From an uncultured Candidatus Saccharibacteria bacterium (GTDB taxonomy: Bacteria > Patescibacteriota > Saccharimonadia > CAILAD01 > GCA-016700035): DNA of 64,000 nucleotides. Location of the stretch: the NCBI GenBank assembly GCA_964583675.1, contig CAZOVH010000002.1, positions 71,548 through 135,547 of the forward strand, written 5' to 3'. Positions within the stretch are counted from its first letter, which is position 1, and the number at the start of each line of letters is the position of its first letter. The translations under genes and the position numbers were made by a program. The notes under the pieces are model-generated. The model worked only from the letters and a program-made list of their open reading frames with translations, ran no database searches and was not told where the DNA came from. Shown here one piece after another: positions 5,056 to 58,362 of the stretch.

Positions 5056-5296
5056 GGTGTTAGTTCGCTTTCTTCTTAAAACAAAGGCTGGCAAGCGGAT
5101 TGGTTTCCAGGTATCTGGACCTAATCACTTCCCAGAAATATTTAGTCAACGAGAGATAGTTTATCAGGTTTACACCAGATATGTCAAGAAGAAACACTGA
5201 TTATTTCACACTCAAGCGAATAAGCATTGACAAAACCTTTTTTTTATTGCTATATTTGGAGTCGCATTTGTACCTACAACTCGAGGATTGTACACC

Positions 5297-7972: not shown

Positions 7973-8012
7973 GGCTCCTCCTAAGGTACAAGATGGACAA
8001 GACTATACGCCA

Positions 8013-8048
8013 AAAGCGCCCCGACTTTCAAGGGCGCTTTTATTTTTT
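8013..8048. terminator. fusA terminator (bidirectional)
   Basis: GCGCCC-N-GGGCGC hairpin followed by TTTTATTTTTT. Confidence 0.65.
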
Positions 8049-29187: not shown

Positions 29188-30849
29188 ATGCAAAACAATA
29201 AATATTATCTGTACGCCAGAAAGTCTACTGACGTAGAGGACAAACAGGTTTTGTCCATTGAGGCGCAACTGGTAGAGTTGCGAGAGTATGCCAAAAGAGA
29301 AAACTTATATATTGCAGCCGAGTTCATAGAGAAAAAGTCAGCCAAAACGACAGGCAGACCAGTATTTGGCAAACTGTTGGCTGAAATCGAAAAAGATGGC
29401 GGCAATATTTTGGCGTGGCACCCTGACAGACTTGCTAGAAATAGCGTAGACGGTGGGCAGATTGTCTATTTGCTAGACAGCGGACAACTCGGCACGCTCA
29501 AGTTTCCCTCTTTTTGGTTTGAGAACACGTCACAGGGCAAGTTTATGCTCTCAATAGCTTTTGGACAGTCCAAATATTATGTAGACAATCTGTCCGAGAA
29601 CACTAAAAGAGGTTTGCGCCAAAAAGTGCGGCGGGGCGAACGTCCTGGGCTTGCGCCTGTGGGCTACATAAATGATGTTAGGACAAAAACGGTTGTCGTA
29701 GACAAACGGCGTTCGCCGATTGTCATTGAGGCTTTTTCGTTGTACGTCAAAGGCGATCAACGGCTTGAGGATATCGCCACTTTTCTAGCAAGTAAAGGAA
29801 TACTAACGAAGTCTGGCAAACAGTTTCCGAAAGATAAAATTAAGCGCATACTCACCAATCCGTTTTACTATGGGCATTTCCGTTATTTTGGCGAGATACA
29901 CGAGGGCAAACATACAGCCATAATTTCCAAGAAACTTTTTGACGAGGTGCAAGCTACGCTTGCAAAGCGTGGGCGACCGCAAAAAGGCGCAACTGCGCCG
30001 CAAATATTTTGCGGTTTGCTCAAATGTGCAACGTGTAAACTGTCCGTTACTGCCGAGAAAAAGATAAAGCACCAAAAGAACGGCAATATTCACGAGTATG
30101 TGTATTATCGTTGCACAAGAAAGCACAAAACAATCCGTTGCACCGAGCCAGCCGTAACTGAGCATGATTTAGTAGCGCAGTTGGCGGACATTTTGTATAG
30201 CTACGCTATGCCACAAGCGTGGGCGATTACGCTGGGCAAAATGCTGGACGAGGACGAAAAGAAAACCAACCAAACATCTGGCTTGTTTGTGGCGGGCGCA
30301 CAAACACGACTTGCGAGCTTGCAGGGCAAGCTCCAGCGACTTTTAGACAGTTATTTAGACCAAGATATCGACCAGAACTCTTATCGCAGTAAACAGGGCG
30401 AGCTAATGTCCGAGAAAAAGTCGCTGGAGGAGCAAGTCAGCAAGCTAACGCTTGCCGCCGGAAGTTGGGTTGAACCTATGCACCAGTGGCTCAAACAATC
30501 CGTTTCTCTCTGTGAAGTTGCTAAAAATGGAAGTTATGCAGACATTAAGCAGGCATTTCTTGAAATGGACGGATTGAACCTGTTTCTAAAATCCAAAAAA
30601 GCGCAGCCAACGGCTGCCCCAAACGCAGCTCTCCCCCCTGAAAACATTTGGTCTGCGCTCCGCGCAGCCAAAGAAAAAACGGCGCAACGCGCCGCTAATT
30701 CTGACTTTAGTCCATTTCTGGTGCGGATGAAAGGACTCGAACCTTCACGTCTTGCGACACTAGCTCCTAAGGCTAGCGTGTCTACCAGTTCCACCACATC
30801 CGCTCGTCGCAAGCGAATTCACTTTGTCTTGCTCAGTGGCGATAATTAA
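29188..30849 (+). CDS. large serine recombinase/integrase
   Basis: N-terminal resolvase catalytic domain YARKSTDVEDKQVLSIEAQ; recombinase domain; Zn-ribbon CGLLKCATCK...YYRCT; coiled-coil; ORF reads through the repeat and tRNA-Leu with no stop until 30849, so the C-terminus is uncertain. Confidence 0.85.
   Translation: MQNNKYYLYARKSTDVEDKQVLSIEAQLVELREYAKRENLYIAAEFIEKKSAKTTGRPVFGKLLAEIEKDGGNILAWHPDRLARNSVDGGQIVYLLDSGQLGTLKFPSFWFENTSQGKFMLSIAFGQSKYYVDNLSENTKRGLRQKVRRGERPGLAPVGYINDVRTKTVVVDKRRSPIVIEAFSLYVKGDQRLEDIATFLASKGILTKSGKQFPKDKIKRILTNPFYYGHFRYFGEIHEGKHTAIISKKLFDEVQATLAKRGRPQKGATAPQIFCGLLKCATCKLSVTAEKKIKHQKNGNIHEYVYYRCTRKHKTIRCTEPAVTEHDLVAQLADILYSYAMPQAWAITLGKMLDEDEKKTNQTSGLFVAGAQTRLASLQGKLQRLLDSYLDQDIDQNSYRSKQGELMSEKKSLEEQVSKLTLAAGSWVEPMHQWLKQSVSLCEVAKNGSYADIKQAFLEMDGLNLFLKSKKAQPTAAPNAALPPENIWSALRAAKEKTAQRAANSDFSPFLVRMKGLEPSRLATLAPKASVSTSSTTSARRKRIHFVLLSGDN
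30590..30720. repeat. inverted-repeat copy B' (right end of putative element, inside the recombinase 3' coding region)
   Basis: Reverse complement of 28907-29040; ends exactly at the tRNA-Leu CCA. Confidence 0.85.
30719..30803 (-). tRNA. tRNA-Leu (anticodon UAG), type II with a long variable arm
   Basis: Minus-strand sequence GCGGATGTGGTGGAACTGGTAGACACGCTAGCCTTAGGAGCTAGTGTCGCAAGACGTGAAGGTTCGAGTCCTTTCATCCGCACCA; 7-bp acceptor stem, anticodon loop CTTAGGA, T-loop GGTTCGAGTCC, encoded CCA; close to E. coli tRNA-Leu. Confidence 0.8.
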
Positions 30850-53599: not shown

Positions 53600-54226
53600 A
53601 TGTCCACCGATACAACCCTCACCGCTGCCGCAGCGGAGACCGCCTACCACACGCTCGAGCACTGGCTCAAGCGGCGTGGACTCGACGACTGGATGGACGA
53701 CCTCTCGGTTGTCTTCCTGGATGCGAACAGCATCCAGCTCTACTGCCGGCGCAACCCTGCCGGATCTCGTCACGGCATCGCCGACGCCGATGAACAAGCC
53801 CGCGTCGCCGTGCACGCACCGTGTGCATATGGCGCCGCCCTGAAGGACAACAAGGAGCGCCCGATGGGTTCGGTTGGCATCAATACTCGCCGCGACCCGG
53901 CTGAAGCGCTGGTGATGTGTGCGCATCTCGCCATCTTCACGCTCGACCCCGGCCTTGAAGACGACTCTCTCAGGCTCGTCATGGAGGAATTCTTCATCGC
54001 AGCAAGAATCAATCCGCCCACCATTCCGAGCCCACGCATGATGGCGTTGGGCATCTCTTCTCAGGCTGGCCTGGCATCAGTCATGCGAGGCGCCGCCCTC
54101 CAAGACGCACTGCCAGGAGGCATGTACGGCGTCCCGCCACTGGGTGAACCCTCTCTACCGCGACCAGCCCCTGGCACCGATCTCATCACGGGCGTGCCGG
54201 GATACGGTGGCGGCCTGCACGGCTAA
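53600..54226 (+). CDS. hypothetical protein (high GC)
   Basis: 208 aa; TTGTAA-17-TAATAT promoter; GGAG RBS; terminator GGATACC-ttcacg-GGTATCC then TTTTTT. Confidence 0.45.
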   Translation: MSTDTTLTAAAAETAYHTLEHWLKRRGLDDWMDDLSVVFLDANSIQLYCRRNPAGSRHGIADADEQARVAVHAPCAYGAALKDNKERPMGSVGINTRRDPAEALVMCAHLAIFTLDPGLEDDSLRLVMEEFFIAARINPPTIPSPRMMALGISSQAGLASVMRGAALQDALPGGMYGVPPLGEPSLPRPAPGTDLITGVPGYGGGLHG

Positions 54227-55372: not shown

Positions 55373-56029
55373 CTAAGCCCCTTTCTTCGCCCTTATTGTA
55401 CCAGCTTTAACAACATTCAAGCGAGACTTCACGATTCGTTGTTTCGAAGCATTCATTCTAGAGGCTCGCTCCAAGAGTGTAAACGAATTGCGATCAATGA
55501 CACTATTGGGCACCACAAAAATCTGACCTGAGTCGTCTTTTAGGCGCGACTTACGGGTATCCATATCAATAATGACACCCTCTATTTTTTGATCAAGCGG
55601 GCCAACCCGAACACGATCACCAATTCTAAAATGCTTGTCGCGAGCGAGATTTAATCCCGAAATCGTATCGCCAACGGTGGCCGAAAAACCCTGCGAGAAT
55701 GCTAGCGCCAAAACCGCAAAAGCACCTGACATCGCGAGCGCTACGTTAGACAGACCGGCAAGCTGCAAGAGAGCGATGGAGAGCAATATCCATAAAACAA
55801 GATCCAGCAGCTTCACGCTAACTTTGATCATCCCCTTTGGGAGCTTAGCTAACCCGAGGGCATGCGTAAGTACGCGCGACAACACTTTGATAGCGATAAA
55901 ACCAATAATGAATAATAAAATTGCTTTTGGTATGCTTGGAGCCGTGCCTCCCAGCCACTGTGTGACCGGCTCTAAGAGCGCATTAGCTGAAGCAGCGATA
56001 TCCTGTTGTGTGGCGGCGAGATATGTCAT
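55373..56029 (-). CDS. small-conductance mechanosensitive channel (MscS family, compact)
   Basis: 218 aa; TM3-beta domain pattern (..FRIGDRVRVGPLDQKIEGVIIDMDTRKSRL). Confidence 0.8.
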   Translation of the reverse strand: MTYLAATQQDIAASANALLEPVTQWLGGTAPSIPKAILLFIIGFIAIKVLSRVLTHALGLAKLPKGMIKVSVKLLDLVLWILLSIALLQLAGLSNVALAMSGAFAVLALAFSQGFSATVGDTISGLNLARDKHFRIGDRVRVGPLDQKIEGVIIDMDTRKSRLKDDSGQIFVVPNSVIDRNSFTLLERASRMNASKQRIVKSRLNVVKAGTIRAKKGA

Positions 56030-56088
56030 ACCACTACTATACCGGTTATGCTCCTAGACGAAAAGCAATGGGATTATTCTTGCTATGT

Positions 56089-56117
56089 TTTACACACTTA
56101 AAGGCATGAGATATAAT
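56089..56117 (+). promoter_or_regulatory. near-consensus sigma70 promoter TTTACA-17-TATAAT
   Basis: Perfect -10 with a 17-bp spacer; no plus-strand CDS downstream. Confidence 0.6.
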
Positions 56118-56124
56118 TCGCTGC

Positions 56125-56451
56125 AACGTACCTTTCGCGCCCTTTACGGGCCACTTGGTTCTTCCTGGGTCACGACGGCTTACATCGGAAACGGTTTAGT
56201 CCGATCCAATACCGTTAATAAACCTTGGGTTTGGGAGAGCAAAAAGGCCGCATGCCTGAGCTCGCTAGCACCATGGGATTACTCGTAGCGCCTGCAGCGC
56301 AACGCGTGATACTCGTCGACTGATGCGCACAGTCACGCCCAAAATGCCCAGGAGGACCACCTCGCGCAGCCCACGCTGCCAACTTCAGCTGCCAGCTGAC
56401 ACCGCCCCGCCTCGGAAACCCACAGACCGAGGCGGGGCACCGTTTTTTTTT
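56125..56451 (+). ncRNA. candidate ~330-nt GC-rich small RNA of unknown class
   Basis: Bounded by the promoter above and an intrinsic terminator CCCCGCCTCGG-N-CCGAGGCGGGG then TTTTTTTTT (56405-56451); the only plus-strand ORF (56085-56288) starts upstream of the -35. Confidence 0.3.
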
Positions 56452-57910
56452 AACTCAATTTTGCCTGAATCAGTTTATTTACTATCTGTGGATTAGCCTG
56501 GCCCTTAGTCTCTTTCATCACTTGACCAACAAAGAATCCCAGCGCTTTCGCTTGCCCAGCTTTAAAGTCTGCCACCGCCTGTGGATTGGCAGTAACTATC
56601 TTTTCAATAATTTCTGCTAGTGCACTCTCATCAGAAATCTGCTCGATACCAAGCCGTTGCATAATTTCTGCCGGACTATCACTACTCGTACAAATCTCGG
56701 CAAAAATCTGTTTTGCCTGACTGGAAGAAATATCACCAGCTAGTTCAAGTGCAATAAGATCTGCGAGTTGTTGAGGAGTAAATGGCGCGATAATTGTAGT
56801 GGCCGCAAACGAATCCGCATCGTCAGCATGAGTCTGCTGTTTTATCCAGGCCTGATATTCGCCAACCAACCAGTTCACTAGCTTACGCTCACCTTTTTCA
56901 CCAACTAGTGTGCGAGTCTCTGCAAAAAACTGTGAGGTATTTTTTTGCTTAATTAATACATCTTGCTCATCTACACTCAGCCCGAGCTCAACCAACTCAC
57001 GTCGGATCGAAATTGGCAGTGGAATCGTTTTTATATGCGATTCTTTCTCAAGCATGGCTTCGGTCACAACGATTGGCGGAATATCTGGCTCAGGGAAATA
57101 GCGATAATCATGTGCTTCTTCTTTGGAGCGTTGAGAGAACGTCTTGCCCTTAGCATCATCAAAACCACGGGTTTCCTGCTCAATAACCCCACCCTTTTCT
57201 AATATTTCAATTTGCCGACCAATTTCGTACGTCAAGGCGCGTTCGGCATTTCTAAAACTATTTAAGTTTTTAAGCTCGGTGCGCGTACCCAGCGAATCAT
57301 CTTTTGACACCGAAACATTCAAATCAAACTTCATGTTACCGTGCTGCATATCTCCATGTGTTACACCCAAAGTTGTGGCAATAGCATAGACTTCTTCTAG
57401 ATACCGGCGAGCCTCATACGGCGAATGCATATCTGGATGCGATACGATTTCCAAAAGTGGCGTACCGGCTCGATTAAGATCCACCAACGAGTAATCTTTC
57501 CCCGCCGGGTGTGTGAGCTTACCGGCATCCTCTTCTAGATGCGCTCGCTCCACTCGGACTTTACGGAATTCACCGTCAACAAGAATTTCTACATAACCCT
57601 CTTCTACAATCGGCTGATCAAACTGCGTAATCTGATAACCTTTGGGATTGTCTGGATAAAAATAATTCTTACGATCAAACTTAGTGGTTTCACGGACCTG
57701 GGCATTCAGACCGTGACCCAAGCGAATAGCCAATTGCACTGCCTGAGCGTTTGGTAAAGGCAAAGTTCCCGGATACGCGAGACAAATTGGGCAAATATTA
57801 GTGTTAGGCGCAGCGGAAACCGAGTTATTATCACAGCCACAAAACATTTTAGATTTTGTCGCTAGCTGAACATGGATTTCAATACCAATTGTTGGCTTAT
57901 ATTCGCTCAT
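56450..57910 (-). CDS. gatB: Asp/Glu-tRNA amidotransferase subunit B
   Basis: 486 aa; MSEYKPTIGIEIHVQL GatB N-terminus. Confidence 0.95.
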   Translation of the reverse strand: MSEYKPTIGIEIHVQLATKSKMFCGCDNNSVSAAPNTNICPICLAYPGTLPLPNAQAVQLAIRLGHGLNAQVRETTKFDRKNYFYPDNPKGYQITQFDQPIVEEGYVEILVDGEFRKVRVERAHLEEDAGKLTHPAGKDYSLVDLNRAGTPLLEIVSHPDMHSPYEARRYLEEVYAIATTLGVTHGDMQHGNMKFDLNVSVSKDDSLGTRTELKNLNSFRNAERALTYEIGRQIEILEKGGVIEQETRGFDDAKGKTFSQRSKEEAHDYRYFPEPDIPPIVVTEAMLEKESHIKTIPLPISIRRELVELGLSVDEQDVLIKQKNTSQFFAETRTLVGEKGERKLVNWLVGEYQAWIKQQTHADDADSFAATTIIAPFTPQQLADLIALELAGDISSSQAKQIFAEICTSSDSPAEIMQRLGIEQISDESALAEIIEKIVTANPQAVADFKAGQAKALGFFVGQVMKETKGQANPQIVNKLIQAKLS

Positions 57911-58362
57911 ACGAGTTTCACTCCCAAATCTGAAATACCTCGCCCCAATGCCGCAATCGCATTGGTAACTTGCGGCTTAACAATATCTACATGAATGTCA
58001 TGCGCGACTTGGTTACGCAATTTATGTGCCGCCCACACGCCATTGAGATCGGAAAACTTGTCACCGTGTCGCTTGAGTCGCTCACCCATGTTGTCGCCAG
58101 TAAAACCTTGCGCTTGCATAACGTAATCTAAAAGCTTATCCGCTTCCATCAAAGCATTTTTTAAGCCCATGCCGCCCTGGCTTTGCATGTGCGCAATCTC
58201 GGTCCAGCGCTGTCGAACTAGTTCAACATCCAGAGTTGGTCGAATCGGGTTATTGCCGTCCGAAAAATTCTGGCCGGAAGCCTTTTCACTATCGCCTTTG
58301 CGCATATACATTAAAAGTCCACCAATAACTAAAATCGCCAAAACCACTGAGATAAATGTCAT
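57907..58362 (-). CDS. hypothetical membrane-anchored protein embedded in gatCAB; C-terminal Rx4H (HEPN-like) motif
   Basis: 151 aa; N-terminal TM; helical domain ending in WAAHKLRNQVAHD; ATGA overlaps with gatA and gatB on both sides. Confidence 0.45.
   Translation of the reverse strand: MTFISVVLAILVIGGLLMYMRKGDSEKASGQNFSDGNNPIRPTLDVELVRQRWTEIAHMQSQGGMGLKNALMEADKLLDYVMQAQGFTGDNMGERLKRHGDKFSDLNGVWAAHKLRNQVAHDIHVDIVKPQVTNAIAALGRGISDLGVKLV

Follow-up and report, generated by a model that had tools for sequence, protein, structure and literature searches.

A predicted transcription unit between gatB and mscS

The stretch of DNA analyzed here (hereafter the window) comprises 64,000 nucleotides (nt) of contig CAZOVH010000002.1 (assembly GCA_964583675.1, forward-strand positions 71,548–135,547), and all coordinates below are those of the window. 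Between the minus-strand genes gatB and mscS it carries a plus-strand cassette, composed of a predicted promoter, an RNA body and a terminator, that is probably the gene of a structured noncoding RNA (ncRNA) of a new family. The host belongs to Candidatus Saccharibacteria (TM7); its best GatB matches in the GTDB species genomes were Saccharibacteria metagenome-assembled genomes, at 98% and 61% identity, all other matches in that set were at most 47% identical, and the GatB-based scan yielded just three close Saccharibacteria. Fetched loci and lineages of relatives are labeled with L-numbers, among which L001–L010 and L100 represent the window’s own species (at least 98% nucleotide identity).

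The two flanking genes, gatB (56450–57910, Pfam GatB_N and GatB_Yqey, stop codon at 56450–52) and the gene for an MscS-type channel (mscS, 55373–56029, PF00924), belong to a minus-strand run in the order gatC, gatA, an open reading frame (ORF) of 151 amino acids (aa), gatB, mscS, an 87-aa ORF, a YtxH-like ORF, DUF5665 and dnaE. A first-pass annotation had proposed that a near-consensus promoter on the strand opposite to both neighbors fires into a GC-rich region with no credible plus-strand ORF, which ends in an intrinsic terminator overlapping the gatB stop codon, and that the product is a structured small RNA (sRNA) of ~330 nt. We found the promoter at 56089–56117 as described, both flanking genes on the minus strand, and a G+C content of 58.2% (56118–56452; ~58% had been given), compared with 48.8% for the whole window. 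The predicted transcript spans 56124–56451 on the plus strand (~325 nt), with its start, at about 56123–56125, placed from the spacing to the -10 hexamer and its 3’ end expected in the terminator T-run.

The promoter consists of a -35 hexamer, TTTACA (56089–56094), a spacer of 17 nt (56095–56111) and a -10 hexamer, TATAAT (56112–56117, GATATAAT), and matches the consensus at 11 of 12 positions. The 64 kb hold six sites that agree with the consensus at 11 or more of the 12 positions, compared with 0.73 ± 0.87 in Markov shuffles, suggesting that this host uses canonical sigma-70-type promoters. The other five matches to TTGACA-17/18-TATAAT, at 5227(+), 10288(+), 13177(-), 23740(-) and 44642(-), each precede, by 32–231 nt, an ORF of 80 aa or more on the same strand, which leaves the site at 56089–56117 as the sole orphan among the six. 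In the other lineages that carry the cassette, the -35 hexamer was kept at 6/6 positions in L101, L091, L096 and L098 (a variant, L097, has TTTACG), the -10 hexamer was invariant, and the spacer was constant in length and free of gaps but variable in sequence, with 8–12 of its 17 positions identical between lineages (47–71% identity). The region immediately upstream (56057–56088), which contains the invariant block AGACGAAAAG and an A/T-rich stretch adjoining the -35 hexamer, was identical between lineages at 21–24 of 28–29 positions; it is a candidate promoter upstream element or, alternatively, a candidate part of the mscS 5’ region.

The terminator (56404–56451, plus strand) is formed by a 12-bp stem in which GCCCCGCCTCGG (56404–56415, also given as GCCCCGCCUCGG) pairs with CCGAGGCGGGGC (56427–56438), an 11-nt variable loop, the tetranucleotide ACCG and nine T residues (56443–56451). 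The first-pass description, an 11-bp stem plus T9, was right about the strength of the stem and the length of the T-run but short by one base pair, and it passed over the 4 nt of ACCG that precede the T-run. The hairpin has a predicted energy of -28.6 kcal/mol (z = -6.4), and the last 2 nt of its T-run fall within the gatB stop codon. A simple terminator scanner missed this site because its loop limit was 8 nt. Just two sites in the window combine a perfect-stem hairpin with a T-run, the other being at 8012–8041 on the plus strand (9–10 bp, AAAAGCGCCC...), and strong intrinsic terminators thus seem to be rare in this DNA. Both stem strands at 56404–56451 were unchanged at 12/12 positions in the four lineages compared, while the loop differed in both sequence and length. 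Because the minus-strand form of the stem is not followed by a U-run, the terminator is expected to act in the plus direction only. The retention of the hexamers, the 17-nt spacing and the terminator stem, with variation confined to the spacer and the terminator loop, is the signature that would be expected of a functional plus-strand transcription unit.

The cassette is an insertion at the 3’ end of gatB

Comparison with sister lineages that lack the cassette (L092–L095) showed that the unit is an insert of ~405 nt (~56059–56463) that replaces ~6 nt (GCTACC) of the ancestral gatB tail. Its boundaries were set where homology to L092–L095 resumes, at CTAG (56055–58) on one side and CCTGA (56464–68) on the other. 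In these four lineages, whose MscS proteins are 91, 87, 87 and 79% identical to that of the window, only 16 nt separate the end of gatB from the mscS start codon, and the more distant Saccharibacteria L011 and L012 likewise lack the long (~415–420 nt) gatB–mscS spacer. A spacer of ~415 nt was present in L001–L010 and L100 and in four further lineages (L091, L096/L097, L098 and L101–L109). The RNA unit was found in one subclade of a Candidatus Saccharibacteria group only, and each time at the gatB–mscS locus. Local alignment to the gatB tails of L092 and L093 located a remnant of the ancestral gatB 3’ end at 56047–56058 (minus strand), where the old stop codon (CTAGGAGCATAA) is stranded beside mscS; the last codons of the present gatB (..A K L S stop, 56450–56463, minus strand) are now provided by the insert. 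This lineage-specific insertion, which apparently splits an operon, is a feature beyond those contained in the first-pass annotation.

No terminal inverted repeats or target-site duplication were found at the insert boundaries, and no repeats or integrase accompany it. The insert was single-copy both in the window and in all fetched loci, and an origin as a miniature inverted-repeat transposable element or as a derivative of an insertion sequence was rejected on these grounds (no inverted ends, no duplication, a single copy). In protein trees the insert-less lineages L092 and L093 interleave with the insert-bearing ones, suggesting that the cassette was lost at least once or was spread among relatives by homologous recombination.

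A promoter scan found no convincing separate promoter for mscS. A TATAGT sequence lies 7 nt upstream of the mscS ATG on the minus strand (within 56030–56046) and is kept in the insert-bearing and most of the insert-less lineages (3985–4000 in L092–L095). This sequence may serve as the -10 box of a leaderless mRNA of mscS and would in that case account for expression of the gene once the operon had been split.

The RNA body is conserved and noncoding

The RNA body was far more conserved than neighboring synonymous positions. Its identity to the window was 95% in L101, 93% in L091, 93% in L096 and 72% in L098, compared with identities of 53%, 47%, 45% and 37%, respectively, at the four-fold degenerate sites of mscS. 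Between the window and L091, positions 56118–56452 were 93% identical, whereas third codon positions of the flanking genes were 56–72% identical. We conclude from these comparisons that purifying selection acts on the promoter, the terminator and the RNA body alike. As the apparently unconstrained sites of the insert (the promoter spacer and the terminator loop) have diverged, the cassette has been in place long enough for such divergence to accumulate. The most divergent copy, that of L098 (JGI 3300071643, positions 94–424 of a 1430-nt contig), is 72% identical to all of the others, and the MscS protein of that lineage is 90% identical.

On the plus strand the region contains three ORFs (67, 32 and 57 aa) and on the minus strand one (55 aa), and gene callers placed ORFs of 90, 85 and 41 aa here in some assemblies, on strands and in frames that differ between lineages. 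No ORF of 12 aa or more was preserved throughout the five lineages. The lineages differ by indels of 1, 2 and 7 nt that break the reading frames, and substitutions were spread evenly over codon positions, without codon periodicity. The sole AGGAGG is buried in a helix of the RNA (H3, described below) and has no start codon downstream. Plus-strand ORFs do exist here, but none of them is conserved, and a gene for a small protein or type I toxin was rejected for lack of a conserved ORF.

A covarying fold on the plus strand

The window copy of the RNA folds with a minimum free energy (MFE) of -128.7 kcal/mol (z = -4.3), and a covariance model of the family, R1, matches 56118–56451 at 403.6 bits. 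RNAalifold, applied to 8–10 distinct variants, gave 90–92 pairs in 13–14 helices, with 98% of cells paired; the L098 copy folded alone formed the same main helices (z = -6.0). We gauged covariation against column shuffles and slid partners. Double compensatory changes were observed in ten pairs, compared with 1.9–2.5 in column shuffles, none of which (0/500) reached ten, and with at most four in the slid-partner controls. The ten pairs trace to three independent lineages, L098 (eight pairs), L091 (one) and L101 (one).

The alignment also bears on the strand. The structure conservation index was 0.907 for the plus strand and 0.843 for the minus strand, and the covariation score was 2.11 and 0.62, respectively. 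At approximately 12 pairs, G-U-type changes have been accepted whose minus-strand counterparts would be A-C mismatches, compared with two pairs for which the reverse holds. The plus strand is therefore favored, from these patterns of substitution, as the structured strand, and a riboswitch or other cis-acting leader of mscS on the minus strand was rejected for its lower conservation index and covariation and for the A-C mismatches that it would require.

Paired columns were more conserved than unpaired ones, and several unpaired blocks were nonetheless invariant: CAACGYACCUUUCG, GAUCCAAUACCG, GUUUGGGAGA, the loop CUGCA, CAAAAU and CCUCGCGC. The first of these, at the 5’ end of the predicted transcript (56124–56137, ACCUUUCG), is mostly unpaired in the consensus fold and is a candidate interaction site; it varied only at its Y position and by one G-to-C strain variant in L100. 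A 4-bp helix, H1, which would join this 5’ end to the terminator tail (AACG with CGUU), was treated as lacking support, as it showed no covariation and one variant breaks it. The 5’ segment is followed by the hairpin H2 (GCCC/GGGC, 56139–56151), with an invariant stem and a variable loop.

The core of the predicted fold is multi-branched and is closed by H3, a long-range helix of 14 bp between UGGUUCUUCCUGGGU (56156–56170) and GCCCAGGAGGACCA (56346–56359), the latter strand holding the sequestered AGGAGG. H3 contains three compensatory pairs (G-C to A-U and U-A to C-G in L098, and a G-C to A-U change private to L091), is paired in 99% of cells, and also forms when L098 is folded alone. Together with H5, H8/H9 and H10 it is among the best-supported helices. 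The hairpin H5 (56184–56205; AUCGGA at 56184–89 with UCCGAU at 56200–05) is formed in L098 by AUCCGG and CCGGAU, which amounts to two compensatory pairs. H8/H9 (GAGC..AGGC/GCCU..GCUC, 56237–56263) varies in length; it shows a stepwise change from C-G through U-G to U-A across lineages and a G-C to U-A change in L098, in which it is 7 nt shorter with the stem kept. The long hairpin H10 (56273–56316) has three compensatory pairs and five pairs with one-sided G-U-type changes, and its apical loop CUGCA (56292–56296), part of a self-complementary CUGCAG, was invariant in all 10 variants.

Other parts of the fold were less well determined. In the central junction (56206–56236), which holds the invariant blocks GAUCCAAUACCG and GUUUGGGAGA, the helices H4, H6 and H7 chosen by RNAalifold compete with alternatives that are supported equally well, namely GACGG (56174–78) with CCGUU (56212–16) and UUUGGG (56230–35) with CCCAAA (56338–43); it is possible that one of these alternative helices would form a pseudoknot. 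The hairpin H11 (GACUG/CAGUC, 56318–56334) had weak support, and L098 has in its place, when inspected by eye, a different hairpin (GUGGUG/CACCAC) that is absent from the MAFFT alignment and from the MFE fold of L098. The two hairpins H12 (GCAGC/GCUGC) and H13 (UCAGC/GCUGA), at 56366–56399, have invariant stems and variable loops. The evolution of the RNA is, on this evidence, accelerated in L098, with many compensatory changes, the 7-nt shortening of a hairpin and possibly a replaced H11.

Searches for known families and further copies

At gathering thresholds, Rfam 15 identified nothing in the whole window other than a tRNA-Leu (30719–30803, minus strand), the sole known RNA gene in the 64 kb by both Rfam and ARAGORN. 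When the E-value limit was raised to 10 for the region, the RNA body and the L096 and L098 copies, the only matches were noise on the terminator hairpin (mir-m22-1, F6, ctRNA_pGA1 and a CRISPR direct repeat), so that the covariance scan assigned the RNA body to no known family. ARAGORN found no transfer-messenger RNA (tmRNA) in the window, and the hallmark motifs of ribonuclease P (RNase P) RNA, tmRNA and signal recognition particle (SRP) RNA were absent even with up to two substitutions allowed. We accordingly rejected each of the candidates considered: bacterial RNase P RNA (RF00010/RF00011; no match at E up to 10 and no conserved-region motif), tmRNA (ARAGORN and Rfam negative, no T-arm-like motif), 6S RNA (consensus and single-sequence folds multi-branched, no Rfam match), SRP RNA (no domain IV motif, no Rfam match), and OLE, ROOL, GOLLD, raiA and HEARO RNAs (none of the 4227 families of Rfam 15 matched at E up to 10). 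The absence of the usual housekeeping RNA hallmarks that the first-pass annotation had noted was in this way upheld by both programs.

Searches for the RNA outside its locus were negative within their reach. With the covariance model R1, neither the window nor other Saccharibacteria loci yielded a further copy, blastn of the RNA against phage and plasmid collections returned no match, and motif scans of viral contigs revealed no relative; one motif match, in a collagen-like repeat gene of a viral contig, was ascribed to chance and rejected by the covariance model. A metagenome motif scan recovered the same species only, a weak negative given that the collection failed to return known copies from other JGI samples (L103/L104). 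Translations of the RNA gene, compared with 5.8 billion and 1.84 billion proteins, matched same-locus copies only. In the literature on ncRNAs of Saccharibacteria and of the Candidate Phyla Radiation (CPR) we found no description of this RNA.

Interpretation and alternatives

We consider it probable that the cassette is a real gene for a structured ncRNA of a new family on the plus strand. This reading draws directly on the insertion, the conservation, the covariation, the assignment to the plus strand, the noncoding character and the absence of a known-family match. The ~330-nt structured sRNA of the first-pass annotation is likewise supported by conservation (a body 93–95% identical where mscS four-fold sites are 45–53% identical), by ten compensatory pairs in three lineages where shuffles give ~2, and by the absence of a small conserved peptide. 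We propose that the sigma-70-type promoter (56089–56117) would start transcription near 56124 and that the one-directional terminator would stop it at 56443–56451. The transcript would consist of a mostly single-stranded 5’ segment, a core closed by H3 that holds five or six hairpins and invariant junctions, two 3’ hairpins and the terminator. The whole promoter–RNA–terminator cassette is a ~405-nt insertion at the gatB 3’ end, antisense within the tightly packed gatC-gatA-orf-gatB-mscS run.

Several points weigh against this reading. Transcription, its start site and its 3’ end are what we infer from the promoter and terminator sequences, and the proposed mode of action comes from architecture alone. 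The comparison covers approximately five independent lineages, most of the double changes come from L098, and pairing in the central junction is ambiguous. The RNA occupies a single locus in a narrow clade in which insert-less lineages are interleaved, which suggests that it is dispensable for close relatives. Searches for further copies were shallow, so that its confinement to this locus is weakly supported, and the phage, plasmid, viral, metagenome and protein searches and the in-window target search found no partner protein, target or homologue in another context.

With regard to how such an RNA would act, we slightly hesitate over the mode that we favor. Given that the RNA is real, we put at a little below even the chance that it works in trans through its folded shape, either as part of an RNA–protein complex or as a tertiary-structured or self-associating RNA. 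The contact sites would be the invariant junction blocks and the self-complementary CUGCAG apical loop. A fold-based mode is suggested because the closing helix, the multi-branched core and the invariant junctions and loop resemble those of protein-binding or RNA-contacting RNAs, unlike base-pairing sRNAs. Again given a real RNA, regulation by base pairing through the conserved 5’ segment (ACCUUUCG) seems to us doubtful; the complement of this segment was not enriched in the 64-kb window. A bolder possibility, which we regard as unlikely, is that the RNA is the first known member of a new class of large functional RNA (a ribozyme, a scaffold for proteins or an RNA that associates with itself, by way of the invariant CUGCAG apical loop and junction blocks) and was imported as a complete cassette from an unsampled Saccharibacteria mobile element and domesticated in an ultra-small episymbiont, splitting the gatCAB-mscS operon.

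Whatever its function in trans, the cassette is likely to have a consequence in cis. Convergent transcription, combined with 330 nt of complementarity to gatB read-through, should separate the expression of mscS and of the genes downstream of it from that of gatCAB. The unit itself overlaps the gatB ORF by just 2–3 nt, and any gatB-to-mscS read-through would be fully complementary to it. It could be argued from this that the cassette is nothing but an antisense or transcription-interference module, in which the convergent promoter and the antisense RNA control mscS and the membrane-protein genes downstream of it by blocking or cleaving gatB read-through, with the fold serving stability only. 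An antisense cassette placed in a junction that measures 16 nt in relatives, a terminator that acts in the plus direction only and thus leaves minus-strand read-through fully complementary to the RNA, and the lack of a convincing separate mscS promoter in the promoter scan all fit such a module. However, an antisense role needs neither thirteen compensated helices nor junctions and loops that are invariant in an RNA 93–95% identical where neutral sites are near saturation, and the G-U pattern points to selection on the plus-strand fold itself. A purely cis role would leave the compensatory evolution unexplained, and we therefore find it insufficient and improbable as the whole account.

We give a smaller chance to the cassette being what is left of a larger mobile element, be it a prophage, an integrative element or a plasmid, which entered the genome at the gatB 3’ end and was later deleted; the surviving RNA, for example an immunity, antitoxin or defense RNA, would now be retained for selfish or defensive ends. 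In favor of this, the site of insertion coincides exactly with the 3’ end of a gene, which has received a new C-terminal tail and stop codon from the insert, with its former stop left stranded on the other side. The cassette is also patchy among close relatives, has a G+C content above that of the genome, and has no ancestor visible in relatives. Against such an origin, there is no integrase, repeat, target-site duplication or inverted end and no phage, plasmid or viral match, and the cassette is single-copy in the 64-kb window with no adjacent conserved toxin or partner ORF. This explanation concerns origin, and it is compatible with a present-day structured ncRNA of the kind that we propose.

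That the RNA is a highly diverged housekeeping RNA (RNase P RNA, 6S RNA, tmRNA or SRP RNA) missed by the Rfam models is very unlikely. The series CACGAC..GGCUUA..UCGG resembles, over a short span, the 3’ part of the M1 RNA of E. coli, which is likely to be chance; in the RNA studied here GGCUUA lies in the 5’ third, an order that does not fit helix P4. Three divergent copies gave no match at E up to 10 to any of the 4227 families in Rfam, ARAGORN was negative, the conserved regions CR-I, CR-II, CR-IV and CR-V, a tRNA-like 3’ end and the SRP motif were absent even with two substitutions, and the fold is multi-branched and not the rod of 6S RNA. Moreover, the cassette is a recent insertion that is missing from sister lineages with the same gene order; its absence from the gatB–mscS locus in L092–L095, L011 and L012 is unlike an essential RNase P RNA. 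The size would suit RNase P RNA or tmRNA, and we retain a diverged RNase P RNA among the rivals because some CPR RNase P RNAs are documented to escape Rfam cut-offs (PMC8172020).

Slighter still is the chance that the structured element belongs to the minus strand, as a leader or riboswitch of mscS or as the gatB 3’ untranslated region, transcribed with the operon. The minus-strand operon would indeed be transcribed through the region, and that strand folds at -137 kcal/mol (z = -2.4), but its structure conservation index and covariation are lower, ~12 conserved G-U-type pairs would become A-C mismatches, the conserved promoter and terminator face the opposite way, and neither strand has an Rfam match. 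A gene for a small protein, or an RNA that in addition encodes a peptide, can practically be dismissed. ORFs do occur here (67, 32 and 57 aa on the plus strand, 55 aa on the minus strand), and gene callers predicted ORFs of 90, 85 and 41 aa in some assemblies, but the called ORFs change strand or frame by lineage, no ORF of 12 aa or more survives in all five lineages, substitutions fall evenly over codon positions, and AGGAGG is buried in H3 with no start codon downstream.

If the cassette is the gene of a structured ncRNA, as we propose, its context makes it of some interest. Saccharibacteria and other CPR bacteria have genomes of less than 1 Mb with few recognizable regulators, and we know of almost no ncRNAs beyond the universal ones that have been described for them. 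A 325-nt, many-helixed RNA maintained at 93–95% identity while synonymous sites nearby are close to saturation suggests an RNA-based function worth keeping under strong genome reduction. The locus also offers a clean natural case in which a complete RNA gene cassette has landed in an operon, with empty-site relatives available for comparison, and with the covariance model R1, read archives and metatranscriptomes can be searched for further members of the family.

Other features of the window

Two ORFs near the cassette deserve mention in their own right. The 151-aa ORF between gatA and gatB (57907–58362, minus strand) overlaps each of them by 4 nt, begins with an N-terminal hydrophobic segment, and had no match in a Pfam search. 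It is kept in all relatives, including the distant L011 and L012, and is thus a conserved, uncharacterized member of the gatCAB operon of this group. An ORF of 208 aa (53600–54226, plus strand) lies before dnaE on the strand opposite to the gatCAB..dnaE run; its G+C content of 60–65% is the maximum of the window, and it too had no Pfam match. Syntenic counterparts of 207–222 aa were present in most relatives and missing from L095. Its identities at the three codon positions between the window and L091 (0.91/0.92/0.72) suggest a real but weakly constrained gene.

Comparison with known RNAs

Among stand-alone RNAs, 6S and Ms1 share with this RNA a sigma-70 promoter, an intrinsic terminator, a length of 200–300 nt, a noncoding, trans-acting character (for the present RNA, a predicted one) and a long helix joining the 5’ and 3’ regions. 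They are, however, rods with a central bubble resembling an open promoter, whereas the fold predicted here is a multi-branched core closed by a 14-bp helix; this RNA also has no Rfam match and is absent from sister lineages.

The RNase P RNAs of CPR bacteria fall below default Rfam thresholds in some genomes, yet RF00010 still picks them up once the thresholds are lowered, and they retain the P4 core (PMC8172020). They have in common with the present RNA the superphylum, a similar length and the escape from default Rfam annotation. They are universal and detectable with RF00010, whereas this RNA is a lineage-specific insert with no match at E up to 10 and no conserved-region motifs.

sRNA genes that are borne by islands or prophages and are located at the 3’ ends of genes resemble the cassette in their compactness, their patchy distribution, the repaired reading frame and the atypical G+C content. 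The present RNA differs from them in that no island remains, integrase or repeats accompany it and no donor was found, and in that it is larger and structurally more complex.

Large complex RNAs to which no function has been assigned are uncommon, and time and again such RNAs have proved to be ribozymes, ribonucleoprotein cores or RNA assemblies. With respect to the raiA motif RNA, OLE, ROOL and GOLLD, this RNA differs in having no Rfam match, in its restriction to one locus in one Saccharibacteria subclade, and in having no association with phages or tRNA clusters; OLE, ROOL and GOLLD are in addition much larger. The likenesses are a stand-alone, ORF-less gene whose product folds into many helices and conserves junction and loop nucleotides that pairing alone would not require, a G+C content above background, and neighbors that do not reveal function. 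The CUGCAG apical loop also recalls the RNA–RNA contacts that have reportedly been seen in self-assembling members of this set in recent cryo-electron microscopy work. We therefore file this RNA as a new family within a known kind, the stand-alone bacterial structured ncRNA gene.

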